64,000 nt of DNA, taken from an uncultured Candidatus Saccharibacteria bacterium. GTDB taxonomy: Bacteria; Patescibacteriota; WWE3; UBA101185; 2-01-FULL-41-18. The translations under genes and the position numbers were made by a program. Shown piece by piece: positions 18,561 through 36,827 of this stretch; positions within the stretch are counted from its first letter, which is position 1; each line of letters opens with the position of its first letter. Below the pieces are notes generated by a model. That model was not told the DNA's origin. It searched no databases and saw only the letters and a list, made by a program, of their open reading frames with translations. The DNA is taken from NCBI GenBank assembly GCA_964636285.1, contig CAZWQF010000003.1, positions 69,226 through 133,225 of the forward strand, given 5' to 3'.

Positions 18561-21157
18561 AAAAGCTTATAATTTCATGCACAACTATAATTTTACTGCT
18601 TCTGACACTGATGGGCACGAGGGAGACTTTTGCTGCATACTGCACCAACGGAAACTTTAGTAGCTGCACTATGCCAGAGAATAATCCATGCACTTGCTGC
18701 GGTCCCAATTCTTCTTGCGGAGGGGGCTGGGCTTGTGAGAGCGGTACAAGTCAGAAATTTAACACATACGACGGATATACGGTCTGCCACTGCAGTTGCG
18801 GAAGTAGCGGAGGTCCTCAAATTACTGAAAATCCAAAGGGGTATCTTGATGGGGTAAACTGCTCTACGGGCAAAGCATATGGGTGGTCTTGCGACGCCAG
18901 TAATTATGATCACACGGTGCAAGTTGATATGTGGATAAATGGCTGGGCTCAGTATGTGGGGTTTGCAAGGGCAAATGTACCTGCAGAGACTGCTGTGGCA
19001 GACGCATGTGGAGGCAGGCCAAATAAAAGGTTTGAATTTATTCTTCCAACGTCTTTATATAATGGAGTGTTAACAGATCTACATGCTTGGGGAATTAACA
19101 CTGGAACTGGCTCAAATACCCAACTTGGGACAAGCCCTAGAGCTTTCATCTGCTCCGCCCCATTTCCAAACTGCAGAGACCTAACTGGACCGGAAATATC
19201 TGGGGGAATCTCAAAGGTAGTAATAGGAGCTCCTGCTAATTTCTCTGCTAACTACTTGAATAACAATGGAGTAGTAACAAGCCGAAATCTAACGGTTGTT
19301 AATAATACAGCAGCCTGTAGCAACATAACTGCTCCAATTATAAGCCCTGGAGGAGCTGGAAATGTTAATTTTAGCTGGACTGCACCAACAGCGGGACTGT
19401 TTACAGCCTATTGTAGTGCAAATAATGGAGGGACAGATTGCCGGGGGGCATGCGTAGGGGGACCTCCAAATAGTTTCCAATGCCCTGGAAGCAATGGAGC
19501 AGGGGCAACTACAACGCTTCAGGTATGCACCAAACCAAGGCATGTCCAGCTCATGTCAATAACTCCAAACAATGACTGCAATACAGGCAACGGATCTACC
19601 ACAATCAACTTTAGGTATAATATTCAGGATAACTATGGAGGACAATTAAGATTTGCTTTTTATATAAACAAGAATCCTGCAACTACACCGGTAGAATGGA
19701 CAGCTGCTTCGTGCGGCAATGGCTCAATGACTACTTTCCCTGGAGGGGATATCTGTGGACAGCTAATTGTTCCGGGCACGAATGGACTCACTTGTGATGC
19801 TGGGGGCAATTGTAGCTTGAGTTTTGCTTCCACTGTAGGCTCAGAATACGATGTCACGGTATCAGCTTGGAGCCCAACATGCTACTGGGCAAGCACAACA
19901 GGTGCAACAACTCAGAGGATCAATACTGGAACCTGTTCAAAAAACGTGACAGTCAACTTAAATCCAAATGATAACTGTAATTCAACTTCTGCAACAAACA
20001 TAAACCACAGTGGGTATGTTCAAAACACTAACCTCGGCCTACCTCAAGTTAATTTTAATGTGGTAAATGGCAGCGCCTTAGTTGCAGTACCATATGTCCC
20101 TTTGCCAACAGTCACTCTCTCAGATTTCTGCTTAAACGGAATGCCAGGAGCTACGCCTGGGTATAACTGGAGACTAGCATGTGCACGTGGAGGGTCAGCA
20201 ACAGACTATGCTGTGTCTGGATCCTGTGCAAGAAATGTGAATGTCAATGCGGAGTCATCAATAACTTATGGATTCAGAAGAATACCAATAAGCGGCTGGT
20301 TCCAATCACTTAACGGCGATGTATTCTCTGGCGCAGGGATTTCAAGGTATCTTCCATCAGTATCTGGCACATATGACACAAACCCATTTCTGATTGACGG
20401 AGTTAATCCTGCGGGTTCTGGTACTTCTGCGAGCGGGATCCTGATAGCAAGAAATAACATAGATATTAGAAACGAAGCTAGCACCATTGTAATATCAGGT
20501 TCAGGAGGATCGGCATCAGGACCAATCAATGTGAGAAGGTCAGCGCACGGTGCAGGAACATTTGCTTTTCCAGCAATTAACTTTGATGGGCCACAATCGG
20601 CTAATCAAGTATCGGGTGCAGCATGTAACACCTTTATGAGTACAGCTTTAATAGATAGGGTTTACAGGATGGATGCAGGGTGCCTAAATAGTGCTACTGC
20701 AGTAGCAACAACCTATAACTTTGCTGGAGGTACGGGTACTGTTGTTGTGTATGTAGATGGAGATATCAACATCAATAGAAGGCTTCAAAATGCTCCGGCA
20801 TCAAGTGACAGGCTAATCTTACTGGTGGACGGCAATGTAACAATAAATGAATCTATAGCAAATGTTGGACTAACACAGTCTAACCCTGGGGACATAGACG
20901 CCACAATTATTGCAAGAAACAACATTACCTTTAGATCAAACGGATCTCAAACTGACGAACCAATTAAGATAGACGGTTCAGTTATCAGCGGAGGAAGTAT
21001 CAGCTTTAGTAGAAATAGAGCAAACAGTGCAGACGGAAACACACTCCCAACCCAAGTGATCAACTACACCCAAGAGGATATACAAAACCTGAACAGGATT
21101 CAGTATTCTGTTGATACAGGCCTTTATACATCCGAGGTTACATGGGAGGTTAAATAG
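18557..21157 (+). CDS. Large secreted Cys/Gly/Asn/Thr-rich protein, candidate T4P-associated adhesin (paralog A)
   Basis: 866 aa with a signal peptide and an N-terminal Cys-rich knot (CTNGNFSSCTMPENNPCTCCGPNSSCGGGWACESG). About 40 Cys in total. C-terminal module VVVYVDGDININ...LILLVDGNVTI...IDGSVISGGSISF...EVTWEVK. It is paralogous to 22812..25589. Confidence 0.6.
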   Translation: MKKLIISCTTIILLLLTLMGTRETFAAYCTNGNFSSCTMPENNPCTCCGPNSSCGGGWACESGTSQKFNTYDGYTVCHCSCGSSGGPQITENPKGYLDGVNCSTGKAYGWSCDASNYDHTVQVDMWINGWAQYVGFARANVPAETAVADACGGRPNKRFEFILPTSLYNGVLTDLHAWGINTGTGSNTQLGTSPRAFICSAPFPNCRDLTGPEISGGISKVVIGAPANFSANYLNNNGVVTSRNLTVVNNTAACSNITAPIISPGGAGNVNFSWTAPTAGLFTAYCSANNGGTDCRGACVGGPPNSFQCPGSNGAGATTTLQVCTKPRHVQLMSITPNNDCNTGNGSTTINFRYNIQDNYGGQLRFAFYINKNPATTPVEWTAASCGNGSMTTFPGGDICGQLIVPGTNGLTCDAGGNCSLSFASTVGSEYDVTVSAWSPTCYWASTTGATTQRINTGTCSKNVTVNLNPNDNCNSTSATNINHSGYVQNTNLGLPQVNFNVVNGSALVAVPYVPLPTVTLSDFCLNGMPGATPGYNWRLACARGGSATDYAVSGSCARNVNVNAESSITYGFRRIPISGWFQSLNGDVFSGAGISRYLPSVSGTYDTNPFLIDGVNPAGSGTSASGILIARNNIDIRNEASTIVISGSGGSASGPINVRRSAHGAGTFAFPAINFDGPQSANQVSGAACNTFMSTALIDRVYRMDAGCLNSATAVATTYNFAGGTGTVVVYVDGDININRRLQNAPASSDRLILLVDGNVTINESIANVGLTQSNPGDIDATIIARNNITFRSNGSQTDEPIKIDGSVISGGSISFSRNRANSADGNTLPTQVINYTQEDIQNLNRIQYSVDTGLYTSEVTWEVK

Positions 21158-21160
21158 AGT

Positions 21161-22048
21161 ATGAGTCTTCTTAAAAAAATAACAGCCAACCAAAAAGGTC
21201 AAACTTTGGTATTTGTACTTCTAGTGATGACCGCAGCCCTTGCGGTTGGCATAGCGATATCCTCAAGAACAATATCCACTATCAGGAGAACTACAAATAT
21301 TGACACAGCATCAAGAGCTTTAGCCGCTGCGGAGGCTGCTGTAGAGTACCATCTTGCCAGAACTGCGTCAGAGCTAGACTCCCTAGCAGGTTACCCTCCA
21401 TCGGGTAACTCACCAAGTAATGTAACTCAATGCACTCAGGTAAGTAGCACTCCAATAAGATATCCAGGCACAGGAACTTTGGATAGTGATCTACAGACGT
21501 ATGCAGAAGTAATTGTTACTAGGATTGGTTGCATGTCTAATAACCAATCTTATGATGTAGAAGTAAGCCCGGATAAGGTCCTAGAACTCAGGCTTGATAA
21601 TGGAACCGATGGGGTAGCCTCTTTTGATATAACTGCTAGAAACCCAACTGCTCTAGGACTGCATATAATAGAGCTTTATCAACAGGGCACCCAGGTACAA
21701 TGGAGAAAAAGATCAGTGAATCTTGGAAGCTCAAACGCAATCAGCTCAGATACTAATATCACTACAGGGGCTAGCACTATAAATTATCAGACTGCAAATC
21801 CTGGTGGAAGCGTACGACCTCTTCTTGTTAGAATCCTGCCAATTAAATCAGCTCCAGGTAAAACATCCTTAACAATTAGAAATGTGTCTTCATACGCATT
21901 ACCATACCAAGGACATAAAATAACTGCCGTTGGGATAGTTGGCGGAAGCCAAAACTCAGTGAACAGAACTATAGTTGCTGCAAAATCTATCCCAGCACTT
22001 CCTGCAATCTTCAATTTTGGTGTATACGGAGAAAGTGGAATTAACTAG
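21161..22048 (+). CDS. PilX-like minor pilin (PilX_N-type prepilin leader, no Glu5)
   Basis: 295 aa. NQKGQTLVFVLLVMTAALAVGIAISSRTISTIRRTTNIDTASRALAAAEAA resembles the PilX N-terminal domain. Starts 4 nt after the preceding gene. Confidence 0.55.
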   Translation: MSLLKKITANQKGQTLVFVLLVMTAALAVGIAISSRTISTIRRTTNIDTASRALAAAEAAVEYHLARTASELDSLAGYPPSGNSPSNVTQCTQVSSTPIRYPGTGTLDSDLQTYAEVIVTRIGCMSNNQSYDVEVSPDKVLELRLDNGTDGVASFDITARNPTALGLHIIELYQQGTQVQWRKRSVNLGSSNAISSDTNITTGASTINYQTANPGGSVRPLLVRILPIKSAPGKTSLTIRNVSSYALPYQGHKITAVGIVGGSQNSVNRTIVAAKSIPALPAIFNFGVYGESGIN

Positions 22049-22825: not shown

Positions 22826-25589
22826 ATTCCTAACATTATTACTATCTTTTTTTGTCTTACTATCTGGGCTAATAGTGCTTGCTAGACAGACCCATGCTAG
22901 TTGCTGCAGCAGTTGCTCAAATGGTAGTTGTACATCCAGAAGAGACACCGGAGTATGTGATGTGAATTTTGGCGCATGCAATAACTGCAATGCAGGTGGA
23001 GGAGTAAGTGCCTGTGCAGGAACCTGGAGTTCTACAAGCACAACTTGCGATGGGTTAGGTATGTGTCAATGGAACCAAAACGACGGGTGTTCTTGCCCAC
23101 CTGGGGGCGGCGGTGGGCCAAACAATAGCCCAAAAGGACACCACGACGGATCTACTTGTAACATATCAAACGGATGGTCGTGCGATGCAGATAACTATGC
23201 AGAAACGGTGAATGTCAAAATTTTTGTGGATGGCATTCATGTTGCAACTGTTCCTGCAAATGAACCGCCAAACAGCCCTTTAGATAGAACAGGTATTGAA
23301 GCCGAGTGCGGAGGGCAAGCAAATAAAAGATGGAGCTGGATAATGCCCGAATCGTTTAAAAATGGGCTTCCAAGAAATATAAGAGCCCAAGCCATTAATG
23401 TTGGATCCTCAGGCTCAGATAGAGACTTAACTAATACCCCTAAGAGCGTAACATGCGTCCCTGCCTTGATCCCTAACTGTAGAAATGTGTCGGGTCCAAA
23501 TATGACTAGTAGTTACGCAAGAACCACCCCAGGCATCTCCAGCAACTTCTCAGCTGAATACTTAAACTTTAACGGACCCGTTACATATAGAGGGATGTCT
23601 TTTGTAAATAATACTTCTCAATGCACTCTTCAAGGCGGTTCGCCCTTCACAAGCATAGGTGGCCAAGGAAATGTAACCTTTGGATGGGCAGCCCCAACAG
23701 CAGGATATTACACAGCATATTGTCAAGCATGGAACAACAACCCCGACCCAGATGTTGAATGTAGGGGTGCTTGCGTTAATGGGCTTCCAAATAGATATCA
23801 ATGCCCTGGAACTAATGGGCTTGGCGCCACTACTACGCTAAACATCTGTACACTACCAAAACCAGCAACTAACGTTGGTGCAACAGTTGCCCTTCAGCCT
23901 GGTTGCTCCACAAACTCAGCACCTCCAGGAAATGGACAGGCAGTTCTTAACTTTAAGTATGATCCAAATGATTACTCTTATCTGGGAAGCCCTGTATACC
24001 TTAACTTTTACATTAATGAGTTAACTGAAACCCCAACACTCAACTGCGCAGCCGCTGTTTTTCCAGATATTTGCCAAGAGGGACTTACGCCAGGATCTCC
24101 TGGATTAACATGTGATTCGAACGGGAATTGTAGCTACAGATTTAGCGTAATACCAGGAGGAAGGTATAGCGCAGTGATAAGTCAAAGAAGTACCTGTGGG
24201 TGGATGGAGCCAAGCTTAGCTTCCACAGTCACTTTCTCAGTTAATCAATGCCAAAGACCTGTAACAGTAAAAGTTGGGGAAACTTCTGATAGTAGCTGCA
24301 GTGCTTCAAACATAGATTCAACAGGATTTTCTGGCACAACAGTAAGTACAACTGTTTGGGGCGAAAATTTAGCAGGAATAAAGCTATATGATCCATACCC
24401 AACAGGCAAGGGTCTAAACCTGCTTGCAAGTCCTTCGAGCGGGGCTGTGAATGCGTTAGGTAATTTTATTACCAATGTTCAGTATTATGCCGGACCCACT
24501 TTTACAGGAGGTGGGTATACAACCTTTGCAAACTTCTGCGTTGACAATCTTCCAACAAGTTCGGCATATAGATACAGACTTAAATGCACAAGCAATTCTG
24601 TCTCATCAGGTAACTGCGCTTACAGAGTTACCGAATATCCGGTTGCCACACCAAATGTGAACATTGGTTTTGAAAGAATACCAGCGTCTGGTTGGTACCA
24701 AACTAACTATGGGGACGTATATAGTGGATCCGCAATAGATAAGAGTCTTCCTAACTCGATCACAGATGGTTCAATAGACTCTGACGGAATCCCTAATTTA
24801 GTTGATGGAGCAATAAACCTACCTAACAGCTCCAATGGATTAGTAGTTTCAGCAAATACAATTAATGTTAGGTCCTTTCAAGGAGCATCAAGAATATCAT
24901 CCGGATCCGCAGGCTATCAAAATTTAAAACTAAGTAATTTTGGTAAAGTGACTATTCCAGCGAGCATCACTTACTCACCACCCACAGGTGCAACCGCAAT
25001 ACAGGGTGGGGCATGCTCAAGCTTTTTAAATAATATAAACCCGACTAACAGGGTGTACAGCATGGATGCAAACTGCTTTAATCTGGCAGCGCAAGATGGT
25101 TCGGGTATAAAAAGGTATAGATTTACAGGAAACCCCTTGGGCATATCAGTTGTTTACGTGCAAGGATCAATAACTTTAAACAACAACCTACAGAATGCTA
25201 TAGGGAGTAATCAAAGGCTTGTCTTGGTAGTAAACGGAAGTATTACAATAGGAAACCAGGTCGGCTCTGGAAATCAAAGGCAACTTGTTGATGAAGGTGC
25301 TGTGGATGCCATTCTCTTTGCTAAGGAAGATCTTACTGTAAAACAAAGGGAAGGGGCAGAGCTTAACAACGATCTGCATATTGAGTTTAACGGATCAGTG
25401 ATTAGCAACGGAAATATACTATTACCAAGGAGTAGATCTGCATCACCAACGGACCCGAATATTGCCCCTGTAGAAGTTTTTGAGTACATGCCGCAAGATA
25501 TTGTGAGGCTTAACTTGCTTGAATATAGCCTAAATGGAAGCGATTCAACGGGACTCTACATAAGCGATATCAAGTGGGAGGTAAAATAA
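22812..25589 (+). CDS. Large secreted Cys-rich protein, candidate T4P-associated adhesin (paralog B)
   Basis: 925 aa with a signal peptide. It has the same Cys-rich N-terminal region (PKGHHDGSTCNISNGWSCDADNY against PKGYLDGVNCSTGKAYGWSCDASNY in paralog A) and the shared C-terminal module ending ...DIKWEVK. Confidence 0.6.
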   Translation: MSLNRFLTLLLSFFVLLSGLIVLARQTHASCCSSCSNGSCTSRRDTGVCDVNFGACNNCNAGGGVSACAGTWSSTSTTCDGLGMCQWNQNDGCSCPPGGGGGPNNSPKGHHDGSTCNISNGWSCDADNYAETVNVKIFVDGIHVATVPANEPPNSPLDRTGIEAECGGQANKRWSWIMPESFKNGLPRNIRAQAINVGSSGSDRDLTNTPKSVTCVPALIPNCRNVSGPNMTSSYARTTPGISSNFSAEYLNFNGPVTYRGMSFVNNTSQCTLQGGSPFTSIGGQGNVTFGWAAPTAGYYTAYCQAWNNNPDPDVECRGACVNGLPNRYQCPGTNGLGATTTLNICTLPKPATNVGATVALQPGCSTNSAPPGNGQAVLNFKYDPNDYSYLGSPVYLNFYINELTETPTLNCAAAVFPDICQEGLTPGSPGLTCDSNGNCSYRFSVIPGGRYSAVISQRSTCGWMEPSLASTVTFSVNQCQRPVTVKVGETSDSSCSASNIDSTGFSGTTVSTTVWGENLAGIKLYDPYPTGKGLNLLASPSSGAVNALGNFITNVQYYAGPTFTGGGYTTFANFCVDNLPTSSAYRYRLKCTSNSVSSGNCAYRVTEYPVATPNVNIGFERIPASGWYQTNYGDVYSGSAIDKSLPNSITDGSIDSDGIPNLVDGAINLPNSSNGLVVSANTINVRSFQGASRISSGSAGYQNLKLSNFGKVTIPASITYSPPTGATAIQGGACSSFLNNINPTNRVYSMDANCFNLAAQDGSGIKRYRFTGNPLGISVVYVQGSITLNNNLQNAIGSNQRLVLVVNGSITIGNQVGSGNQRQLVDEGAVDAILFAKEDLTVKQREGAELNNDLHIEFNGSVISNGNILLPRSRSASPTDPNIAPVEVFEYMPQDIVRLNLLEYSLNGSDSTGLYISDIKWEVK

Positions 25590-25590
25590 C

Positions 25591-26454
25591 ATGAGACAAA
25601 AAAACACTTTAAATCAAAAGGGCCAAACATTAGTCTTTATCCTCCTAATAATGACTGTAGCTCTAGCTATTGGAGTAGCGATATCAAGCAGAACAATCTC
25701 AACTATAAGAAGAACTACCAATATAGACACATCATCAAGAGCTCTAGCAGCGGCTGAAGCTGCAATTGAGTATTACCTTGCTAAACCAACAATTCTTCTA
25801 GATCAGGCTTCCGGTTTTACTGGACCAAATGATCGGCCAACAGAATGCAGTCTAGCAACACCGCCGGTTCCTAAAGTGTACCCAGATTCAGGAAATAGCA
25901 TTGGAAATGACATAAACACATCTGCAGAAATTGTGATTAAAAGAATTGGTTGTGTATCAGGCAGTCAAACCCATTCCTTTGATGTTGACGAAGGTAAAGT
26001 TTTTGAGCTAAGGCTAGATAAAACTCAAAACAACCGAGCAAACCTTAGATTTGACCTTGGGTCTACTAGGGCAGCTCTTTACATAATAGAGCTTTATGAT
26101 AGCACCGGGCTAGATGCTGTTGCTATGAGAAAAACTGGATATCTATTCAACTCGTTCTCGAGTTCAGAACTGAATGGATTCACAAACGCGTCAGGAGGGT
26201 CTTACCTAGACTATCAGACAAACACAAGACCTTATCTATTAAGAATCATCCCAATAGGTTCAAAAATCAGGATGACCTACTCAAGAACGGGCGGCTCGTT
26301 TAATATCCCATATCAAGCTCATGAGATCACAGCTACAGGAAAAATAGGAGGTTCCCAAAACTCAGTAACCCGTACCGTAGTAGCTACCAAAACCCTCCCT
26401 CACTTGCCTGCGGCTTTCAATTTTGCCCTGTTTTCAAAAACAGGAATAAACTAG
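25591..26454 (+). CDS. PilX-like minor pilin, paralog of 21161..22048
   Basis: 287 aa. NQKGQTLVFILLIMTVALAIGVAISSRTISTIRRTTNIDTSSRALAAAEAA is near-identical at the N-terminus to the cassette A PilX-like protein. Confidence 0.55.
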   Translation: MRQKNTLNQKGQTLVFILLIMTVALAIGVAISSRTISTIRRTTNIDTSSRALAAAEAAIEYYLAKPTILLDQASGFTGPNDRPTECSLATPPVPKVYPDSGNSIGNDINTSAEIVIKRIGCVSGSQTHSFDVDEGKVFELRLDKTQNNRANLRFDLGSTRAALYIIELYDSTGLDAVAMRKTGYLFNSFSSSELNGFTNASGGSYLDYQTNTRPYLLRIIPIGSKIRMTYSRTGGSFNIPYQAHEITATGKIGGSQNSVTRTVVATKTLPHLPAAFNFALFSKTGIN

Positions 26455-27101: not shown

Positions 27102-29039
27102 ATGGTAAAAACTGCCTACACCTTAAAACTATTAATTACAGCTATATTTTTCTTGTTCTCAGTGTTTGTGCTCAAATACACATATCCTGTTTTACAAAAA
27201 GCATTTGATCAAACAACTAGAGCATCGGGAGATACTACAGCTCCAACAAGCACTCTGTCCATAAACCCTTCGTCACCAGACGGGCAAAATGGGTGGTATG
27301 TGAACCCTGTTGACGTAACAATCGCTGCAGATGATTTAGAGTCAGGAGTACAGTCTATAAATTGGACCTTAGATGGTACATCCGACAGTCAAACTTTTTC
27401 TAACACCCTTAATCTTGCACCGAACCCTAGTTTTGAAGACGCGGGTCTTCCAGTAAACATGTGGGACAAAGTAAATGATGACGGTGGAGCATCATATACC
27501 CAAGACCCATCAGCAGCACCAAGCCTTGGAGCATCGTCTGTTAGTATTGTTTCCACAACTTCCGACTGGCATGGTATCAACCATAAAAATAACTTTTCAG
27601 TGGCGTCTAACCTCCAAAACATGACCTCAAGCCTCTGGATTAGAACAGAAAATGTTACTGGGAGTGCGCAGTATAAAGTGTATCTAGTGTATGACGATGG
27701 GGTAGGGAATAGCGGAACATCGCTTCTGGCCACATCAGCCTCTGTTACAGGAACTCAGCCTTGGCAAAAAATTAGTCTAAATTTTATCCCTAATAATGCT
27801 AATACTGTAGGGATTTATATAGAGGCGGGACTCACAGGCACGGGAAGCGTATGGTTTGACGGTGCAAATATATCGTCTTCAATTACTACTACCCAAACCA
27901 ACTTTGCTGTCTCAGCTAGTGGAAACCATAGCCTCTCTTACCATAGTGCCGATTTTTCTGGAAATGTAGAAACTCCAAGAAACACAACCTTTAAAATTGA
28001 TACTAAAGCTCCGTCAAAATGGGTAAATTTTTCGTTAACGCAATCGGGAAATACCCACACATTTATTGTGAGCATTAGAGCTTCTGATGCTATATCCGGC
28101 ATAGATGTCTCAACCGCTCAGTTCCAATATTCAGTTGATGAAGGGGCAACATGGGGATATTACTCAACCCTAACTGGCTGTAATACCACTTTTAATTCTG
28201 GATGGGCTAACGCGTCAACATCTCCTAATTCAGACGGAAGTACTACAGTTACAGTAAGCACCCCAGCCATAGACTTTTGTAACAGCAACTGGGCAACAAG
28301 CAAGAAAATCAGATTTAGGGTGTCCGATATGGCAGGTAATTTAAGCCAGAGCTCAGACTTTACTATCAATGGGGCTTGGGTTCAAGTGGGGTCAGGTGAA
28401 ATTGGATCTAATTTTGATATTGGAATGCAAACAGGATCGCAAACTGCACACCTTGTAACATCAAAGGGATCCCTCTCAGGAATCACGTCCTCTAGTGGCT
28501 GGTATCTTGAGGATTATGATCACACACTTCCGTTTCAAACTTACAGCACCTGGTACTCCAAATACCCCACTACAACATCGTTACCTTCAGGGAGGTTACC
28601 TACAGCCAGTGGAAGATACAGAGTAAACTCAGACTTCACAATTGCATCAAGCACCCTTCCAAGTAACTTATCAACAAGACAAAACATTAGTGCTGTAATA
28701 TTCATCAACGGGGACTTAAACGTAAACACAAATTACTCACTTCATGCTACAACAGGTTATATTTTTATAGTAAACGGGGATGTGACTGTGGGTAATTCCG
28801 TATCTTCTGTTGATGGGTACTTTATTTCAGACGGAGAATTTGATGTTGGATCAGGAAGTACTGCTTTAACAATAACAGGAGGGGTTCAAGCTGATTCATT
28901 TAATCTAAAAAGAAGTTTGAGCGGTAATCAAAACACATCAAATCCAGCTGAAACTTTCAATTTTCACACAAAATATTTTATTACAGGTAGAAATCAGCTC
29001 ACCGATAACTATTCAGTTACTTGGCTAAGCAGTAACTAA
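27102..29039 (+). CDS. Membrane-anchored surface protein with a CBM4/9-like sugar-binding motif and the cassette-type C-terminal module (paralog C)
   Basis: 645 aa with an N-terminal TM. NPSFEDAGLP...W starts at residue 108, as CBM4_9 galactose-binding-like domains do. The C-terminus VIFINGDLNVN...IFIVNGDVTVGNSV... is homologous to the C-termini of the 866- and 925-aa proteins. Confidence 0.55.
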   Translation: MVKTAYTLKLLITAIFFLFSVFVLKYTYPVLQKAFDQTTRASGDTTAPTSTLSINPSSPDGQNGWYVNPVDVTIAADDLESGVQSINWTLDGTSDSQTFSNTLNLAPNPSFEDAGLPVNMWDKVNDDGGASYTQDPSAAPSLGASSVSIVSTTSDWHGINHKNNFSVASNLQNMTSSLWIRTENVTGSAQYKVYLVYDDGVGNSGTSLLATSASVTGTQPWQKISLNFIPNNANTVGIYIEAGLTGTGSVWFDGANISSSITTTQTNFAVSASGNHSLSYHSADFSGNVETPRNTTFKIDTKAPSKWVNFSLTQSGNTHTFIVSIRASDAISGIDVSTAQFQYSVDEGATWGYYSTLTGCNTTFNSGWANASTSPNSDGSTTVTVSTPAIDFCNSNWATSKKIRFRVSDMAGNLSQSSDFTINGAWVQVGSGEIGSNFDIGMQTGSQTAHLVTSKGSLSGITSSSGWYLEDYDHTLPFQTYSTWYSKYPTTTSLPSGRLPTASGRYRVNSDFTIASSTLPSNLSTRQNISAVIFINGDLNVNTNYSLHATTGYIFIVNGDVTVGNSVSSVDGYFISDGEFDVGSGSTALTITGGVQADSFNLKRSLSGNQNTSNPAETFNFHTKYFITGRNQLTDNYSVTWLSSN

Positions 29040-29065: not shown

Positions 29066-30097
29066 ATGAATATTGTTGGACTCGAAATGGGAGGGCACTC
29101 CTTCAAAGCTGTTGAGCTTAAAAAAGAAAAAGACAAAATTGAGCTGGTGAGATATGGGCTAAGCGAAAGGCATAATCTTACACTTAATTCAGACTCAGAA
29201 GAAGACCTTGAAAAGTATGCTCACGGGTTAGCTGACTTCTTTGACGATAACCACTTTTCCACACCAAATGTAGTAGCCGCACTTCCCGAAACTAGCGTTT
29301 TTACAAGAATTATTAAAGTACCAAAAATGAGCGATAAGGAGCTTAAAAGTGCTATCACTTATGAGGCAGAGCAGTATATACCCTTACCCCTAAAAGACGT
29401 AAGCTTTGATTTTCAAATCTTTGAAGATGACCCAAATGACAAGAGCAATATGAATGTGCTCCTGGTTGCTGCAACCAAAATATTAATTGATAAATATGTA
29501 AAAATTCTCAAAAAAGCAAAGCTCATACCTGTAGGGCTTGAGCCAGAGACATTGGCAATTGCAAGAGTTGCAGGAGATAAGCTAGACCAACCTAACCCCT
29601 CTATAATAGTATGCATTGCGTCCAACGAAACAAATGTAATTATTACCTACAAGGGTGTTGTTAGATTCACAAGAAATATATCAACGGGTGGAGATACCTT
29701 AACTAGAGCTATAGCACAAAATCTGGGTTTTGATTTCTCGCAAGCAGAAGAATACAAAAAGACTTACGGAATAGACCCAAAACAGGTTGATGGAAAAGTC
29801 TATAATTCGGTTAAACCAGTATTTGATATCATTTTAAATGAAATTAAAAGAGCATATTTCTTCTATACAACACATAACCCCAGTGTTAACATAAGAAGAG
29901 TAGTAGTTTGCGGTGGAACTGCCCTGATGCCGGGACTTTTATACTACTTAACAACTAACCTTGACCTCGAGGTTGAGTTAGCAAACCCATGGGAACGAGT
30001 AGTTTTTCCGCAAAAACTTGAAAAAGATAAACAAAGACTACTGGATATTGGACCTTATTTTGTTTCATCAGTAGGATTGGCTATCAAGGAGATGTAA
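29066..30097 (+). CDS. pilM: Type IV pilus assembly protein PilM (actin-like ATPase fold)
   Basis: 343 aa with a PilM-like N-terminus and an FtsA/actin-like fold pattern. Followed by pilN and pilO with overlapping stop and start codons. Confidence 0.62.
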   Translation: MNIVGLEMGGHSFKAVELKKEKDKIELVRYGLSERHNLTLNSDSEEDLEKYAHGLADFFDDNHFSTPNVVAALPETSVFTRIIKVPKMSDKELKSAITYEAEQYIPLPLKDVSFDFQIFEDDPNDKSNMNVLLVAATKILIDKYVKILKKAKLIPVGLEPETLAIARVAGDKLDQPNPSIIVCIASNETNVIITYKGVVRFTRNISTGGDTLTRAIAQNLGFDFSQAEEYKKTYGIDPKQVDGKVYNSVKPVFDIILNEIKRAYFFYTTHNPSVNIRRVVVCGGTALMPGLLYYLTTNLDLEVELANPWERVVFPQKLEKDKQRLLDIGPYFVSSVGLAIKEM

Positions 30098-30681
30098 TGT
30101 CAGATATTGACCTAATTCCAGCGGAAGAACGCTTACAAAGATCAAAAGAGAAAGCAAAGAAATTTGCGCTGATTTTTACGTTAATATTGTTTGGTATCAC
30201 CTTAATTGCTTCTGGCTTTTTGTTCTACTACATAGGAACTTTAGACAAAAAAATTATGGATACTACTGCCTCGATTGAAGAGGTTAAGAAAAAGATTCAG
30301 GATAAGTCAGAGATTGAAGTATCAGCTAGAAACTTAGATGCTAAATATAAAATTCTAAGTAGTATATTATCCGGAAGAACATACTACTCCGTGCTTCTAG
30401 ATGAATTAACGTACCGAAGCCCTACAAACGTTACTATCAACAGCGTAGAGTCTGCAACTCCAGATAAAGCAACACTATCAGGAACAGCTACGGATTATGT
30501 ATCCCTTGCCAAATTTCTTAATGCATTAAGCGATCAAAAACTTGCTTCACAATCAGCTACGCCAAAAGATAAGAACCTGTTTAAAGAAGTATCTATAACT
30601 ACTGTATCCCTAGATTCACTTAACTTAAGTATTAAGTTTAATTTAGGATTGCAGCTTGATGAAAGCTTATTAAAAAGATGA
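30097..30681 (+). CDS. pilN: Type IV pilus assembly protein PilN
   Basis: 194 aa with a short cytoplasmic N-terminus (where PilM binds), one TM helix and a periplasmic domain. Position supports the call. Confidence 0.5.
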   Translation: MSDIDLIPAEERLQRSKEKAKKFALIFTLILFGITLIASGFLFYYIGTLDKKIMDTTASIEEVKKKIQDKSEIEVSARNLDAKYKILSSILSGRTYYSVLLDELTYRSPTNVTINSVESATPDKATLSGTATDYVSLAKFLNALSDQKLASQSATPKDKNLFKEVSITTVSLDSLNLSIKFNLGLQLDESLLKR

Positions 30682-31412
30682 ACTTAGAATTAAACCCAAG
30701 AACAAATAAAATAAGCAAAGAAATGATGGTTGGTACGGTCCTTCCTTTGCTTTTTATCTCTGCTACTGCTGGATTGTTCTTTTTAGTAACATATCCAAAG
30801 TATAATCAGATTCAACCAAAAAACGATGAGCTTAAACAGCTTGAGGATAAAAAGGGACACCTAAGCTCAAAACTTCAAAAATTAAACGACCTTGTGGACT
30901 TTAAGGAAGTTGTAGACCAAAACTCTGCCCTAATAAACACAGCGCTTCCCTCCGAAGCTAATGTTCCAATACTACTTACTCAAATTCAAACAATAGCAAA
31001 AGAAAACGACCTTGAAATCCAAAATCTTTCGTACTCTTCATCAGGTGCAGCAAGTCAAAGTGAGGCAAATAAAGTAAACGTCCAGATGAGCGCGAAAGGA
31101 AACTTTGAGCAAGTAAGAAACTTCTTTTATGCCGTTGAAAAAGCTTCAAGAGTACTTGAATTTAGTACTATTAGATTCTCCACGGAATCTACTGGTATTG
31201 AAACAGATGCGCAAAGTGCAGGGCTAGAAATAAGTATTTCATTACGATCACCTTATCTTTTTGTTGAGTCCAAAGCAACAACAGAGGACCCTATCACAAT
31301 AGATATCAGGGATCAGGCATTTTTAAATTTTGTTAATAGGCTTAAAGAGCTTAGACTTTATACAACCGTAGTAGGAACAGAGAACATAGGTAAAGAAAAC
31401 CCATTCAAATAA
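30678..31412 (+). CDS. pilO: Type IV pilus assembly protein PilO-like
   Basis: 244 aa with an N-terminal TM, a coiled-coil region and a C-terminal domain. Position after pilN supports the call. Confidence 0.45.
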   Translation: MNLELNPRTNKISKEMMVGTVLPLLFISATAGLFFLVTYPKYNQIQPKNDELKQLEDKKGHLSSKLQKLNDLVDFKEVVDQNSALINTALPSEANVPILLTQIQTIAKENDLEIQNLSYSSSGAASQSEANKVNVQMSAKGNFEQVRNFFYAVEKASRVLEFSTIRFSTESTGIETDAQSAGLEISISLRSPYLFVESKATTEDPITIDIRDQAFLNFVNRLKELRLYTTVVGTENIGKENPFK

Positions 31413-31414: not shown

Positions 31415-32254
31415 TCAGTTAGTTAAAATAGTTGAGTCAGAAGTACTAAATAAAACATAATCAAAAGAGGAAGGTACAAAAGACCTACTTTTAAGTGCTG
31501 TTACAGTTTTTGTCACGGATCCTAATCTACCTACAGAAGTCAAAAGATACCCTTGGACCGGAAGCGTACCTCCACTTTTTGGTATAACATACAGATTCAG
31601 ATCTTGGTATATTGCTCTAATTCGCACAAACCTTGGGTTATCCTGACCAGATATTGTGAAACAGTTAGAGTATGATAGGTCTGGTGCCGCTGCTGTGAAG
31701 CCGTTGGATGAGTGAGTGGTACTTGTAGAGTTATAAGCATACCTCTGAGACGAGTAGGGAGTAGAAGATCCGTATACAAACAGGGCAGAAACCGAAGGGG
31801 TGCTCCCTGAACTCCCATCCCAGCAAAGTTCTAAAGGCCTGTTACCGTACCCGGTAAGGTCAACCTCCGTTACATCGTCTCTTGAAACTTTTGTATTAAA
31901 TAGACTGGTAGAGTTACCTGCGTATGAAAGTGAGACGGTTGCAGTTGCAGCTACGCCATCCGCTCCAGTTATTGTAACTTGGCAATTAGTACCACAGGAA
32001 TTGTTATTGATATATGTATCCAAGGTACCTGGTGCTGTAGGTAACATTTTTTCAATCGCGGCCTCCGCCACGGCATACGCCCTTGAGGAGGTATCCAGTG
32101 TTGTGGAGTTCCCAGACCCTTTTATAATTCTTTGCGATATAGCAAGCCCAATTGACAGTGAGATGATCATCAGCATCATTACCACAATCAATGTCTGCCC
32201 TTTTTGATTGCCACTTGAACAAACCCTGCAAAAAAACTTCATAGTATGTATCAA
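31415..32254 (-). CDS. PilX-like minor pilin, third paralog
   Basis: 279 aa. NQKGQTLIVVMMLMIISLSIGLAISQRII...DTSSRAYAVAEAAIE has the same N-terminal domain as the two cassette PilX-like proteins. It is the last gene of the minus-strand fimT-pilV-pilW-pilX-like block. Confidence 0.5.
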   Translation of the reverse strand: MIHTMKFFCRVCSSGNQKGQTLIVVMMLMIISLSIGLAISQRIIKGSGNSTTLDTSSRAYAVAEAAIEKMLPTAPGTLDTYINNNSCGTNCQVTITGADGVAATATVSLSYAGNSTSLFNTKVSRDDVTEVDLTGYGNRPLELCWDGSSGSTPSVSALFVYGSSTPYSSQRYAYNSTSTTHSSNGFTAAAPDLSYSNCFTISGQDNPRFVRIRAIYQDLNLYVIPKSGGTLPVQGYLLTSVGRLGSVTKTVTALKSRSFVPSSFDYVLFSTSDSTILTN

Positions 32255-32805
32255 TTACCTGACCTTAACACAACTACACTTGAGAACGTCTGTGAAGCTG
32301 TAAACGGACTATTAGAGGTGTATGAGCCAGATTGGATCATTGGGATGGTGATTGAAACGCTTGTAACACCATTTGCTGTGGTCTGAACAGTAAAGACGGC
32401 ATCAGAACTTAAAGTAACACCATCTTTACATGCATCATTTGTCATTTTTAGAGCTGTCGAACCATTAACACTTCTTGTTATAGTTCTGGTATTACCACCC
32501 CCAGAACACGACGTGTTTTGAAACTGAGCAGTATATACAACAGTTCCATACGGGGTAGTCAGCTGAAGATTTGACCCTGTTGAAGAAGAAGCCAACGTTG
32601 CATTTTTTATATCGTAAATTATTTTGGCTAGAAGATAATTTCCGTTTTGCTCTATCTCATTCAATACTCTAGTCTTGGTGTAACTTCTTGTTACAGACAC
32701 AATCAAATCCCCGGCAATCCCCACTGATATCAAAATTATTGAAACAACCACAAGTATCTCAACAAGCGTGAACCCCCTTTGAAGTTTTATTGCTTTAAGT
32801 TGCAT
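32251..32805 (-). CDS. PilW-like minor pilin
   Basis: 184 aa with a class III prepilin leader, RG|FTLVEILVVV, and Glu at +5. Confidence 0.5.
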   Translation of the reverse strand: MQLKAIKLQRGFTLVEILVVVSIILISVGIAGDLIVSVTRSYTKTRVLNEIEQNGNYLLAKIIYDIKNATLASSSTGSNLQLTTPYGTVVYTAQFQNTSCSGGGNTRTITRSVNGSTALKMTNDACKDGVTLSSDAVFTVQTTANGVTSVSITIPMIQSGSYTSNSPFTASQTFSSVVVLRSGN

Positions 32806-33309
32806 TTATTTACCTCTCCAGTTTGTGAAATCTGTGTAGTTATAAACACACTGACTTTTTCCACCAATACTCCAATGGACTACAACTCCGGCACGATAAA
32901 CCCCAGAAACAGATGTAAGATTCATTGTGTAAGTAAAGGGAGTTGATTGCTTTTGACCCGCAGTTGGAGCAGAACCAACTGGATTAGTGATAGGGTAAGA
33001 GCACCCTCCTGTTGGCGCCTGACAGGCTGAAAGAAATGTATAGTTACAAGGAGAGGTAGCTAAATTAGTAAAAGTCGCCCATGACACATTAGAGCTATCC
33101 CTATATGATCTTAATAATTCAAGTTGGTTTTGAGCTAATTGTGTTGCTTGAGCTGTATATGAGGACTGCCTGGAGTTTCTTAACGCAAAAACAGCTAAAG
33201 AGACTAGAGAGGTTACAACTATAACTGCAAGCGAAACAGCAATCAAAGTCTCAACAAGCCCTATGCCACTTTCTGACTTTAAATATTTTTTATACATTAA
33301 CATCATCAT
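32806..33309 (-). CDS. PilV-like minor pilin
   Basis: Prepilin motif SG|IGLVETLIAVSL. The ORF track begins at 33366; an internal Met (MMMLMYKK) at 33309 avoids overlap with the upstream gene. Confidence 0.48.
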   Translation of the reverse strand: MMMLMYKKYLKSESGIGLVETLIAVSLAVIVVTSLVSLAVFALRNSRQSSYTAQATQLAQNQLELLRSYRDSSNVSWATFTNLATSPCNYTFLSACQAPTGGCSYPITNPVGSAPTAGQKQSTPFTYTMNLTSVSGVYRAGVVVHWSIGGKSQCVYNYTDFTNWRGK

Positions 33310-33316
33310 ACTAGCT

Positions 33317-33910
33317 TTAATTAGAACAGCTACCTTGCCCCGAAACACTACCAACCATCCCTGCAAGATTTAAAGAAGTTTGCATCCAAGCATTATTTCC
33401 AGGGGTAATGCAGGACCTCACAGTGTTATCTCCACCTGAAAGAAGGTTTATAAAAGTAACATCTGCTGAAATCATTCTAAAAAATACACAGGATCTTGAG
33501 TTTGAAGGTGTCTGAAAAGTTGCTCCGGCCTGCAGCATGTCGGACTCTACATGCGCCTGATTTAGAGCATTGCAGGACGCTGCGTCAGGAGAGGGGGTGG
33601 AAACATAAGTTCTTGATATTCTGTATCTTGAATCTCCATCGTTATACCAAAAAACCCAGTAATTACAAAGATTTGGGCTTGAGCAGACAGTATTAGAATC
33701 AACGCCTGATATTGCCCTGTTTTGTGCATCTCTAACGCCGTTTTTAACAGCCTCCTGAGCTTGCCTCAGATTTTGATCATTAATAAAACCATTAAAATTA
33801 GGGACCGTAATTGCAGAAACAGCACCCAAGATACTTACTGCAATGAGAACCTCCACCAATGTAAAGCCGCTGTGTTTAATTGTTTGTAGATGATGGGCAG
33901 ACTTAAGCAT
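33317..33910 (-). CDS. FimT/GspH-like minor pilin
   Basis: 197 aa with prepilin motif SG|FTLVEVLIAVSILG. Position ahead of the pilV-like, pilW-like and pilX-like genes supports the call. Confidence 0.5.
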   Translation of the reverse strand: MLKSAHHLQTIKHSGFTLVEVLIAVSILGAVSAITVPNFNGFINDQNLRQAQEAVKNGVRDAQNRAISGVDSNTVCSSPNLCNYWVFWYNDGDSRYRISRTYVSTPSPDAASCNALNQAHVESDMLQAGATFQTPSNSRSCVFFRMISADVTFINLLSGGDNTVRSCITPGNNAWMQTSLNLAGMVGSVSGQGSCSN

Positions 33911-33943
33911 TTATATAAATGCTAAAGTAATAGGGGAGAGTAG

Positions 33944-34444
33944 TCAATTCATGAGTGTTAAACTAGTGCCCACTTCATACTTACTATTACTATTTCCACC
34001 GTCAGAGGTCATACTAATTTCAGTGGCTTCTAGAACTGCGTTAAGCTCATAATTAGAACCACTTTTCCTGTAGGTATAGACATAAATACCAGTGTTCTTT
34101 GGGTCAACTGGTATTTTTTGAATATAGCTTGAGAACGAAGAGTCTATCCAGCCCTGTGTAACACTTTCATAGGGACCTCCATTTCCGGTAGGAAGGACAT
34201 TACTTGTTCGTGTAGTATTATCCGAATCAGGATACGAACCTGTGTTTATTCTATACTCCTCAATAGCTCTTGATAACGAACGAAGGTCAGCAACTCTCTT
34301 AACATCTCTTGCTCTCCTTTTTTGTGCAGCTGGGTATAAGTACATGAATGCAATGGAGGATATTGTCACCAAAATAAAAAGCGAAACAGTTAGCTCAATA
34401 ATACTGAAGCCTTTGATATGTAAACTATTTGTTTTCGACTGCAT
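33944..34444 (-). CDS. PilA-like type IV pilin (array member)
   Basis: KG|FSIIELTVSLFIL...RARDVKRVADLRSLSRAIEEY is a major-pilin N-terminal helix. The start was chosen at MQSKTN; the ORF track extends to 34519. Confidence 0.55.
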   Translation of the reverse strand: MQSKTNSLHIKGFSIIELTVSLFILVTISSIAFMYLYPAAQKRRARDVKRVADLRSLSRAIEEYRINTGSYPDSDNTTRTSNVLPTGNGGPYESVTQGWIDSSFSSYIQKIPVDPKNTGIYVYTYRKSGSNYELNAVLEATEISMTSDGGNSNSKYEVGTSLTLMN

Positions 34445-35051
34445 AACAGCTTGCCTGGTCCCCACAAAGACCCCAAGTTGACCAGTTTCTTGAACCAGTA
34501 CTGCATCTATTCCCTCCAACAGCTGATGCTAGCTCCATTGTTGCAGTAACAACATACCCATCAGCAAGTTGCGTAGATCCTGATCTGTATGGCGCAATAT
34601 AGAAGTATGCCTGTGTTGGAGATCCGTTACACGGACTATTAGTACCAGTACTGGCAGTAGGATCTGAGGGTACTGAATTTGTTACGGCAGAAAATCCTGT
34701 TAGAGAATTACAACTGCCTGTACCTAATAAGCACTGACTAAGCCTATCTGAACTACCTGTAATCTTGATAAAACAAGTTGACGCAACACCTGAGCTTACC
34801 TGACAACCTGATGTTGCACTAGAAGGGTAACCTCTATGCTTTAAGTAAAATTGCTCAAGAGCTATCTGTATAGTTTTAAGGTCGGATATTCTCTGAGAAT
34901 CTCTTCCTCTTGCCCTTATTGTAGCCGGATTAATTATCACAATAATTGCCGAAGTAAGCACACCAATCAATAGGGCTACTACAAGTAGCTCAACAAGACT
35001 AAATCCCTTCTGCGTAGATTCATTTTTTTTAGCAATCTCAAAAATATACAT
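34425..35051 (-). CDS. PilA-like type IV pilin (array member)
   Basis: 208 aa. KG|FSLVELLVVALLIGVLTSAIIVIINP...RARGRDSQRISDLKTIQIALEQF. Confidence 0.58.
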   Translation of the reverse strand: MYIFEIAKKNESTQKGFSLVELLVVALLIGVLTSAIIVIINPATIRARGRDSQRISDLKTIQIALEQFYLKHRGYPSSATSGCQVSSGVASTCFIKITGSSDRLSQCLLGTGSCNSLTGFSAVTNSVPSDPTASTGTNSPCNGSPTQAYFYIAPYRSGSTQLADGYVVTATMELASAVGGNRCSTGSRNWSTWGLCGDQASCYAVENK

Positions 35052-35063
35052 GCTATCTTTTAA

Positions 35064-35591
35064 CTATAACGGGTTTTGAACACCAATACAGCCTGCAAGA
35101 GGCGTACCCCCACAACTTGCTGAAAAGCTTGACCAGTTAGTTAAGAATGAACAAGGCGTAGCATTTGTGGGAATAGAGGTCTCCAGCACTGCAGTAAGTA
35201 TGTAAGTGCTTCCTGAAGAAACAAAGTTATATCTATTTGCTTGCCCGCCAGCTGTACATGCTGAATTACCAGTTCCTTTGGCTAGAGTTAATGGGTCTCT
35301 TGGGAATGTTCCAATAAAGTCGCTTAGAGCCGTGCTAAGACAATCCTCTGCCAACCCCCATGTCCCTGCAACACATCCTCCAGCGGGAAAGATAGGATAT
35401 ACTGTATTTCCACCACTAGATATATACTGCTCAAGCCCAGATTGAATAAGTTTTAAGTCATTGATTCTTCTTCCATCCCTGGCTTTGGCTCTAAGCTGAT
35501 TTGGGTTCATAACCATCAGTACAACCCCAACAAGAATTCCAAGGACAGATACTGAAACAATAAGTTCTATAAACGAAAAACCTTTTTTCAT
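35064..35591 (-). CDS. PilA-like type IV pilin (array member)
   Basis: 175 aa. KG|FSFIELIVSVSVLGILVGVVLMVMNP...AKARDGRRINDLKLIQSGLEQY. Confidence 0.58.
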   Translation of the reverse strand: MKKGFSFIELIVSVSVLGILVGVVLMVMNPNQLRAKARDGRRINDLKLIQSGLEQYISSGGNTVYPIFPAGGCVAGTWGLAEDCLSTALSDFIGTFPRDPLTLAKGTGNSACTAGGQANRYNFVSSGSTYILTAVLETSIPTNATPCSFLTNWSSFSASCGGTPLAGCIGVQNPL

Positions 35592-36139
35592 TAGTTACCC
35601 CTGCTTTCCAAACCATAACAGTGAGTGTTATCACAGGTACCTGCATATGAATTCCAATTGGAAAGTGAGATGCACTTACCCCCTGATGTTGATGAAACCG
35701 ATTCCATCTGTGCAGTTAGCACAAAGTAACTTCCATTCGAGTTATAACTAAATCTGTAGTGAGGATTTGCGCCATTAGTGTAATTGCATGGGCTGTTTGC
35801 AGAAGAGCTACTATACGAAGGGTCCTGCGGCATGTACTGAAGATACTTCAACCCTGAGGCTGGTGATAGGGCAGTGCTTAACGAATCTGAACCAGTCACG
35901 GTTATCCAGCTCCCTCCTGATGATGGAAAAGAACCAGAATTATTTGTTCTATATAGCTCAAGCGCTGTTTGAATTGATTTTAACGAAGAAGCCCTCTTAG
36001 CATCCCTAGCTTTTCCCTGAAGCTGACTTGGGTTGATTACCGTAAGCAAAACACCGGCCAAAATTCCCATAATAGACACAGCTAAAAGTATTTCAATTAA
36101 GGTAAATCCTTTTATCGAATGGGAAAGCTTGACGGGCAT
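35591..36139 (-). CDS. PilA-like type IV pilin (array member)
   Basis: 182 aa. KG|FTLIEILLAVSIMGILAGVLLTVINP...GKARDAKRASSLKSIQTALELY. Confidence 0.58.
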   Translation of the reverse strand: MPVKLSHSIKGFTLIEILLAVSIMGILAGVLLTVINPSQLQGKARDAKRASSLKSIQTALELYRTNNSGSFPSSGGSWITVTGSDSLSTALSPASGLKYLQYMPQDPSYSSSSANSPCNYTNGANPHYRFSYNSNGSYFVLTAQMESVSSTSGGKCISLSNWNSYAGTCDNTHCYGLESRGN

Positions 36140-36247
36140 AGTTAAATGTTATGTGTTTTAGTGATTCTAGTCAATGTAAGCAAATTCTATAAAACCGAAA
36201 AGGGCCGGTTTCCCAGCCCCTTTGTATATTAGGTAGATCAAGCTAGG

Positions 36248-36778: not shown

Positions 36779-36797
36779 TTGACACCTCCTTTCATCT

Positions 36798-36827
36798 ATT
36801 CTAAACAACATGCAAATCAATTAGCAA
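36798..36827 (-). promoter_or_regulatory. sigma70-like promoter for pilin 36248..36778
   Basis: Minus strand reads TTGCTA, an 18-nt spacer, then TAGAAT. About 15 nt downstream is the RBS AAAGGAGGTG, 5 nt before the ATG. Confidence 0.45.

Follow-up and report, generated by a model that had tools for sequence, protein, structure and literature searches.

A secreted WWE3 protein with a carbohydrate-binding-module-like domain is encoded directly upstream of pilMNO and shares its C-terminal module with a widespread set of adhesin-like proteins

We analysed a 64,000 nucleotide (nt) stretch of DNA (contig CAZWQF010000003.1, positions 69,226 to 133,225; hereafter, the window) from an uncultured bacterium of the candidate division WWE3, and concentrated on the gene at 27102-29039. 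An initial annotation, made from the letters of the DNA, had described its product as the third paralog of two giant proteins encoded nearby, carrying a sugar-binding module and lying directly upstream of the pilus genes pilMNO. The ORF (open reading frame) was confirmed on the forward strand, with an ATG start and a product of 645 amino acids (aa), and so was its position, as pilM starts at 29066, 26 nt past the stop codon. Because this short gap contains no terminator-like site, the gene and pilMNO are probably co-transcribed. A promoter and terminator scan gave counts no higher than in shuffled sequence, and supports only the absence of a terminator before pilM. A perfect TATAAT lies at 27078-27083, 18 nt before the ATG and within the 65 nt gap that follows the preceding KH-domain gene; it has no recognizable -35 element, and the consensus scan did not flag the hexamer.

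The gene is set in a complete type IV pilus locus, with PilD, PilC, PilT and PilB also encoded on the opposite strand (Table 1). Upstream of it are rpsP and the KH-domain gene, both named from the syntenic genes of a related locus, and between RNase III and rpsP lie two tandem three-gene cassettes (17826-26454). Each cassette encodes a small transmembrane protein (244 and 236 aa), a Cys-rich giant (giant 1, ORF 18557-21157, 866 aa; giant 2, ORF 22812-25589, 925 aa) and a PilX/GspK-like protein (295 and 287 aa). The related loci L001 and L006 have a single cassette after the KH-domain gene, which implies duplication and relocation in the window genome. In total, the window encodes three proteins with a shared C-terminal module and three PilX-like proteins, the latter all without the glutamate at position 5 (Glu5) of the pilin motif ('QKG|QTLVF').

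The 645-aa protein is a Sec-exported extracellular protein of four parts: a signal peptide, an immunoglobulin (Ig)-like domain with a nested domain resembling a carbohydrate-binding module (CBM), a second Ig-like domain and a beta-solenoid module of ~220 residues. Of 5.8 billion proteins searched, 53 were full or partial homologs, 33-74% identical, and the source organism, where named, was always from the candidate division WWE3 / Patescibacteria group. In an alignment of 49 sequences (A1), invariant residues are spread throughout, including N104, N108, S110, W121, C360 and C393. Chance explains none of the features of the gene, whether the ORF, the motif described below, the C-terminal similarity or the position.

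The N-terminus holds one hydrophobic segment (residues ~4-31; 19-residue Kyte-Doolittle windows above 1.6 start only at residues 1-13), which the initial annotation had read as a transmembrane anchor. The segment is real, but a permanent anchor is not what the family points to. Nearly all of the 49 homologs carry a small-x-small site 0-3 residues ahead of the mature 'DTT(A/P)P' start, and the window protein reads 'TRA|SGDTTAP' at the equivalent place, after an unusually long spacer following the hydrophobic core. As this site is conserved in position, the segment is probably a cleavable Sec signal peptide rather than an anchor. We also considered whether the protein could itself be a type IV pilin or minor pilin, and rejected this because it has no prepilin motif: the class III signal (G|F-x-x-x-E, then a hydrophobic helix) is absent, and N_methyl was unmatched in the Pfam scan.

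The first Ig-like domain belongs to the OmpL47-type beta-barrel domain family of NCBIfam (NF047446), which matched the whole protein at 52.4 bits (cutoff 40) in two stretches. When residues 102-260 were spliced out, the model matched as one stretch (positions 1-68 of 68, 49.5 bits), and the CBM-like domain is therefore inserted in a loop of the Ig-like domain. The likeness to the Leptospira OmpL47-type proteins (NF047446 / NF047441) lies in this above-cutoff match to the barrel model and is one of domain type only, the OmpL47 equivalog model reaching 19.6 bits against a cutoff of 250. The second Ig-like domain (residues 304-423) gave weak matches only, to the OmpL47-type model (21.9 bits), DUF7743 and Reelin subrepeat-B.

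The initial annotation had taken an NPSFEDAGLP...W motif (residues 108-121; four family-invariant residues, N104 to W121, lie in or just ahead of it) as the start of a CBM4/9-like module, and had named the lack of a significant domain hit as grounds for giving up the claim. Taken literally, those grounds exist: the Pfam scan of the 645-aa protein returned no CBM match even at E <= 1, the protein thus falling short of the gathering score of CBM_4_9 (PF02018, 25.9 bits), and the scan of the family consensus sequence returned no CBM_4_9 match. As Pfam was silent on both, the claim was settled by the homologs, a profile search of PDB sequences and structure prediction. Among the 49 homologs, Pfam reported CBM_4_9 in four and CBM_4_9_1 in two; P0032 was the only one seen passing the threshold (27.1 bits), and its match begins exactly at the residue equivalent to the NPSFE start, at profile position 2. 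One further homolog carries the UniRef name 'CBM-cenC domain-containing'. A profile of residues 100-262 (A2) matched the PDB sequence 4d0q end to end (E 0.0026), and AlphaFold2 run on the same alignment gave a confident all-beta model of the CBM-type beta-sandwich, with a predicted local distance difference test (pLDDT) of 93.8 and a predicted template modelling score (pTM) of 0.88.

Searched against the PDB with Foldseek, this model had 166 matches at E <= 1e-3, and nearly all of the 50 matches listed were carbohydrate-binding modules or glycan-binding domains of phage tailspikes. The top match was again 4d0q (E 7.3e-10, template modelling (TM) score 0.69), the hyaluronan-binding module of Streptococcus pneumoniae hyaluronate lyase, which belongs to CBM family 70. 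It was followed by CBM16, CBM22, CBM61 and CBM4-2, with E values of 1e-8 to 1e-5 for the CBM16, CBM22 and CBM4 matches and TM scores of 0.6-0.7 for the leading CBMs, at an identity to any solved CBM of only 10-21%. On this evidence, we regard it as established that residues 102-260 adopt a CBM-type beta-sandwich fold (CBM4/9/16/22/70 type). The module proposed from the NPSFE motif thus holds at the level of fold and family, but not as a Pfam match on the protein itself. The domain resembles CBM4/9, CBM16, CBM22 and CBM70 in its fold, and CBM4/9 also in the alignment of its start with the CBM_4_9 profile in a homolog; it differs from them in scoring below the Pfam thresholds, in not being attached to an enzyme and in being nested inside an Ig-like domain. 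It has 13 conserved aromatic positions, and its fold suggests that it may bind sugar.

Only the C-terminal part of the protein connects it to the giants. Pairwise BLASTP against the two giants was marginal (E 0.002 and 0.001 over 41-43 aa, at equivalent positions). A family profile of residues 425-645 searched against the 233 window ORFs picked out giants 1 and 2 (E 1.1e-9 and 5e-4, respectively), with no other ORF below E 1, and hhalign of the family tail against the aligned giant pair gave 95.1% probability (E 3.1e-8, 105 columns). A profile built from 55 distant module sequences from outside the window matched all three window proteins over the whole ~220-position module, with E 4.7e-49 for the 645-aa protein, 4.2e-18 and 1.2e-13 for the giants and nothing better than E 0.6 for the next, non-module ORF of the 233. 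The homology of the three C-termini that the initial annotation had proposed, with a threshold of E < 1e-3, is therefore shown, at E values well below this, by hhalign and by this profile.

The term 'third paralog' did not survive in the same way. The head of the 645-aa protein and those of the two giants do not align, whilst giants 1 and 2 are true paralogs (36% identity, E 2e-136). As the three proteins have only the tail of ~220 aa in common, 'paralog' overstates the relation, and we rejected full-length paralogy of the 645-aa protein. The Cys-rich N-terminal regions of the giants had no Pfam match. A word-based search had found only giant 1 itself and its paralog, as if giant 1 were an orphan; this proved wrong, since the syntenic 897-aa protein of L001 (6361-9054) matches it at E 1e-27. 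The giant heads evolve fast, and their seeming lack of relatives stems from the limited sensitivity of the search. In L006 (3551-7092), two adjacent ORFs of 576 and 608 aa, with module profile E values of 1e-11 and 3e-17, stand in place of the single giant of its relatives; they may represent two shorter module proteins or else a giant that was rearranged or frameshifted.

The module is not a trait confined to the three window proteins. Searched exhaustively with a profile, 1.84 billion cluster representatives yielded 4,626 matches at E <= 1e-3 and 1,754 at E <= 1e-10, so that the module ends at least 4,626 protein clusters. Among the 150 matches listed, which range from ~100 to 1,417 aa (the shortest being evident fragments), the module ends at most ~20 residues from the C-terminus in all but P0173, where it is internal. 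A prepilin motif is absent from all of the best 147 module proteins, and those of full length show Sec-type N-termini. In 45 diverse module proteins, Pfam identified heads of the types CARDB (nine), VWA (seven), dockerin (three), DUF11 (three), fn3 (two), CBM_4_9 (two) and PKD (one). Judged from these sequences, the family consists of a conserved tail combined with variable adhesive heads. Among the few non-terminal cases is P0010 (L007 8001-10352, 783 aa), in which ~145 further residues, weakly PKD_4-like at 705-772, follow a module that stops at residue 638.

AlphaFold2 modelled the tail alignment (A3) as many short repeated strands, typical of a beta-solenoid (pLDDT 90.3, pTM 0.88). Foldseek of this model against the PDB found nothing at E <= 1e-3. 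The nearest folds were DUF3494 ice-binding solenoids (for the three best, E 0.015-0.04, TM score 0.38-0.46 and root mean square deviation 7.6-7.8 Å), a family in which we do not place the tail; a BFVD fold search gave equally weak matches, and the module profile had no match among PDB sequences. Pfam DUF7305 (PF23981) matched weakly in four of the 49 homologs and two of the 45 module proteins (best E 1.1e-4; P0035, 16.8 bits against a gathering score of 27 bits, residues 495-570) and did not match the 645-aa protein, which suggests a distant relationship at most. A literature search found no paper mentioning DUF7305. The tapirins of Caldicellulosiruptor adhere to cellulose, and the competence pilin ComZ of Thermus thermophilus is located at the tip. 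Tapirins and ComZ are beta-helix or beta-solenoid proteins tied to type IV pilus loci, and both appear among the fold matches of the tail, but these matches were non-significant (ComZ, E 1.2; tapirin, E 0.5-1.9; TM scores 0.22-0.37) and we do not claim homology.

Table 1. Coordinates of the 645-aa protein gene, its predicted domains and the associated module and pilus genes in the window
Feature	Position	Strand	Evidence or remark
Whole gene	27102..29039	+	ATG start, 645 aa; secreted modular surface protein, WWE3-specific family
Residues 1-41, Sec-type signal peptide	27102..27224	+	h-region ~residues 9-25; probable cleavage TRA|SG
Residues 44-101, OmpL47-type Ig-like beta-barrel domain, first half	27231..27404	+	NCBIfam NF047446
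Residues 102-260, CBM-like beta-sandwich nested in Ig-like domain	27405..27881	+	Begins at NPSFE motif
Residues 261-303, OmpL47-type Ig-like domain, second half	27882..28010	+	NF047446; sub-threshold Big_13 match, residues 260-301
Residues 304-423, second Ig-like beta-sandwich	28011..28370	+	Invariant Cys pair C360, C393
Residues 424-645, conserved C-terminal beta-solenoid module	28371..29036	+	Tail common to both giant proteins
Giant 1 C-terminal module, aa ~580-845	20294..21091	+	Independent module profile E 4.2e-18, hidden Markov model (HMM) positions 3-220
Giant 2 C-terminal module, aa ~626-901	24687..25514	+	Independent module profile E 1.2e-13, HMM positions 2-221
PilX/GspK-like minor pilin, paralog a, directly after giant 1	21161..22048	+	NCBIfam GspK N-terminus E 7e-4; 'QKGQTLVFVLL', no Glu5
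PilX/GspK-like minor pilin, paralog b, directly after giant 2	25591..26454	+	NCBIfam GspK N-terminus E 4e-5; 'QKGQTLVFILL', no Glu5
pilM	29066..30097	+	Pfam PilM_2 1.4e-47; directly downstream of 27102-29039
pilN	30097..30681	+	Pfam PilN 2.5e-5
pilO	30678..31412	+	Pfam PilO 2.5e-12
PilX/GspK-like minor pilin, paralog c	31415..32254	-	N-terminus 'NQKGQTLIVVMML', without Glu5; last gene of inverted minor-pilin block
Minor and major pilin gene block with prepilin N-methylation motifs	32251..36820	-	Pfam N_methyl matches

To place the gene in its family context, nine family loci were sampled, the window included. The target gene is directly upstream of pilMNO in five of them: the window, L001 (56% identity), L006 (62%), L007 (43%) and L009 (34%). 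In L007 and L009 the adjacency to pilM is kept though the surroundings are otherwise rearranged. All five pil-linked loci have a PilX-like gene nearby, and all except L009 encode a second module-bearing giant. In the window, L001 and L006, a PilX-like gene comes directly after the gene for a giant module protein.

The same junction was approached from the pilM side with an alignment of five PilM proteins, which found 80 metagenome loci; 26 of these combined a strong PilM match with 2.5 kb or more of upstream sequence, and make up our tally. A PilX-like gene (the ortholog of paralog c) is directly upstream of pilM in 23 of the 26, where it ends a co-directional run of minor pilins. In two others (L021 and L022) the order is pilin, pilin, PilX-like gene, target gene, pilM, pilN, pilO, all on one strand. 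L025, outside the tally, has a module protein, then a PilX-like gene, a 394-aa gene and pilM. Gene order thus indicates a standard operon of minor pilins, PilX-like gene and pilMNO, with the target family as a lineage-restricted insertion at the junction between the PilX-like gene and pilM. In the clade of the window, the pilin block has been inverted to the far side of pilO, the target gene having stayed before pilM. The reverse-strand block at 31415-36820 is convergent with pilO, and in most related genomes (for example L018, L020, L021 and L036) the block is co-directional and directly upstream of pilMNO. Within it, the listed pilin ORFs 33944-34519 and 34425-35051 share ~95 nt; in the downstream ORF the N_methyl motif does not begin until residue 36, which makes a start later than the listed TTG probable.

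Adjacency to minor pilins or to pilX is therefore found for the target gene in L021, L022 and L009, and for the giants in the window, L001, L006 and L025. Linkage to pilus genes is recurrent but not universal, with pilMNO adjacency in five of nine family loci and insertion before pilM in two of 26 pilM-centred loci. Also supported is the view, taken in the initial annotation, that the 645-aa protein is one of several adhesin-like surface proteins with a genetic link to type IV pilus genes.

These observations led us to favour, tentatively and at somewhat less than an even chance, a reading in which the 645-aa protein is a non-pilin, pilus-associated glycan adhesin that works in the manner of PilY1. 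The protein would leave the cell by Sec export, and its conserved tail would, by analogy, dock on a PilX/GspK-like pilin capping the type IV pilus. The variable head, a CBM-like domain on Ig-like spacers, would bind a glycan, either of a surface or of another cell, after which pilus retraction would draw the cell onto the glycan target. The two giants, each with its own PilX-like gene, would provide alternative heads for the same docking, making three interchangeable tip adhesins. More speculatively, and in our view unlikely as it stands, the ~220-residue tail could be the Patescibacteria counterpart of the PilY1 C-terminal domain, a universal adaptor loading interchangeable adhesive heads on type IV pilus tips via a cognate PilX/GspK-like pilin. 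It is similarly doubtful, though conceivable, that the CBM, VWA, CARDB, dockerin and Cys-rich giant heads are all carried in this way, with three alternative tips in the window genome of which one binds sugar. A role of the 645-aa protein in attachment is what we infer from these features.

The comparison with PilY1/PilC, the tip adhesins of type IVa pili in Pseudomonas aeruginosa, Neisseria and Myxococcus xanthus, rests on several likenesses. The 645-aa protein is a non-pilin and shares their layout of a type I (Sec-type) signal peptide, probably cleaved, a variable N-terminal region and a conserved C-terminal domain. In some loci its family is encoded beside a PilX/GspK-like pilin without Glu5 at the end of a minor-pilin block, several paralogous adhesin/PilX pairs occur in one genome, and VWA heads occur on other proteins with the same tail. 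The place of the family after the PilX-like gene is also that of pilY1 in the classical operon fimU-pilVWXY1. In M. xanthus, PilY1 has a type I signal peptide, an N-terminal region of low conservation and a conserved C-terminal domain, which contacts PilX at the pilus tip; PilX, like GspK, is without Glu5, and the three PilY1/minor-pilin clusters of this species have been proposed to give tips with different properties (PMC7541494). The window is arranged on similar lines, its three proteins with the conserved tail being Sec-exported and its three PilX-like genes lacking Glu5. The differences are that the tail is modelled as a beta-solenoid, not a beta-propeller, and that the gene is dispensable in most related operons. 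Neither the Pfam nor the NCBIfam scan of the 645-aa protein gave a PilY1/PilC match. With this tail fold, the protein can at most share the way in which PilY1 works; it does not belong to the PilY1 family.

A number of points weigh against the PilY1-like reading. The docking of the tail on a pilin is a proposal, and the predicted tail fold is not the propeller of PilY1. A CBM-like fold is not proof of sugar binding, and Pfam found no CBM in the protein. Mean pairwise identity does not single out the CBM-like domain as more variable than the other parts (42%, against 53% and 42% for the two halves of the first Ig-like domain, 49% for the second and 36-41% for the tail), which argues against strain-specific host recognition; this pattern of conservation suggests a common ligand rather than rapidly changing recognition. 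The 23 pilMNO operons of the tally with a PilX-like gene directly before pilM have no target gene, which is therefore not needed for pilus assembly in general. The remaining four of nine family loci (L003, L004, L005 and L008) are away from pil genes, with the target gene alone among housekeeping genes; in L003, L005 and L008 it stands beside cysS. The neighbours in L004, the locus of homolog P0012, are unrelated and include GH18 and GH26 glycoside hydrolase genes and a mannosyltransferase gene, the only context hinting at polysaccharide metabolism.

In the Candidatus Curtissbacteria loci, outside WWE3, adjacency to minor pilins or pilX was not found either. An alignment of a narrower module subfamily (A7) gave eight loci, seven of them from Candidatus Curtissbacteria, and six of the eight (within L011-L017) hold module-bearing giants of 811-1,378 aa. 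In the flanks of these six Curtissbacteria loci, up to 8 kb each side, neither a pilin nor a PilX-like gene was detectable, and at this sensitivity the tail is therefore not universally pil-linked. Five of the six giants have an mreB-like gene, named from its N-terminal sequence only, within ~1 kb after them, and most are preceded by a single-pass transmembrane protein of ~225-256 aa. This pair of small transmembrane protein and giant resembles the first two cassette genes of the window, the small proteins being without detectable sequence similarity.

The main rival to a pilus-tip role draws on these same loci. The 645-aa protein could be a pilus-independent surface adhesin, its beta-solenoid a general domain for retention at the cell surface (cell wall or S-layer) in many Patescibacteria, and the pil adjacency in some WWE3 lineages mere clustering of envelope genes. 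The very diverse heads of a module that ends so many protein clusters fit this view, as do the family loci far from pil genes and the Curtissbacteria giants near mreB, for which the preceding small transmembrane protein could be an anchor partner. Flanks of up to 8 kb without pil genes are, on the other hand, weak evidence, because type IV pilus genes are often scattered. Against the rival stands the precise recurrence of the gene at the junction between the PilX-like gene and pilM, in rearranged contexts and down to 34% identity, together with the recurrence of giant-then-PilX-like pairs in the window, L001, L006 and L025. On account of the Curtissbacteria and stand-alone WWE3 loci we nevertheless keep pilus-independent adhesion as a serious, if less probable, explanation, and give its envelope-clustering account of the pil adjacency the same limited credence.

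A structural role is improbable in our judgement. The protein could be co-expressed with PilMNO, bind a glycan of the cell's own wall through its CBM-like domain and so anchor or guide the pilus machine through the envelope of an organism without a secretin; no secretin was identified among the window ORFs scanned, and the close, terminator-free spacing to pilM and the even conservation of the domain, which fits a constant ligand, agree with such an accessory. But a gene missing from 23 of 26 related pilMNO operons and away from pil genes in four of nine family loci is a poor candidate for it, and a tail common to VWA-, CARDB- and dockerin-headed proteins is adhesin-like, not machine-like. Absence from those 23 operons also led us to reject a core component of the pilus machine. 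Equally improbable is nutrient capture, with the CBM-like domain targeting an environmental polymer and the tail assembling a cellulosome-like surface complex: whilst the CBMs that match best in fold come from glycoside hydrolases and a lyase, some proteins with the same tail carry dockerins and P0012 is encoded near GH18 and GH26 genes, neither Pfam nor NCBIfam found a catalytic domain in the 645-aa protein, and linkage to glycoside hydrolases occurs in one of nine loci against five for pil genes.

Glycan-directed pilus adhesion is already a known idea in Patescibacteria. The minor pilins PilX1 and PilX2 of Saccharibacteria TM7x carry fused lectin-like domains, and binding is affected by glycans of the host wall (rhamnose) (PMC11623550). 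As a putative Patescibacteria type IV pilus component with a fold of glycan-binding type, the 645-aa protein resembles PilX1/PilX2, for which attachment via cell-wall glycans has been proposed (PMC11623550). The TM7x lectin-like domains (beta-jelly roll and beta-propeller) are, however, fused to the pilin, whereas in the window the CBM-like domain is on a separate Sec-exported protein with a conserved tail and the PilX-like pilins are separate genes. A literature search combining WWE3, pili and adhesin found nothing relevant and, as far as we found, a separate Sec-exported CBM-like protein with such a tail has no prior description. What is new is the combination of a PilY1-like logic and a CBM-type fold with an uncharacterized, very widespread tail module.

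How ultra-small, mostly uncultured Patescibacteria attach to surfaces and partner cells is little understood, and type IV pili are the main candidates. Our analysis defines a widespread uncharacterized C-terminal module that ends thousands of secreted adhesin-like proteins and that, in WWE3, is genetically tied to the tip-cap minor pilin and pilMNO. More than in any single protein, the value lies in the tail module and in how it pairs with PilX-like pilins. Even without docking, the CBM-like protein offers a concrete target that can be expressed and tested for glycan binding. Were the module to dock on pili, sequence alone would suffice to list candidate attachment proteins and the classes of ligand they probably bind, and the PilY1 design of a conserved dock and a variable head would have evolved with a different fold. 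Should the adaptor reading hold, thousands of unannotated Patescibacteria proteins would become candidate determinants of host and surface recognition.

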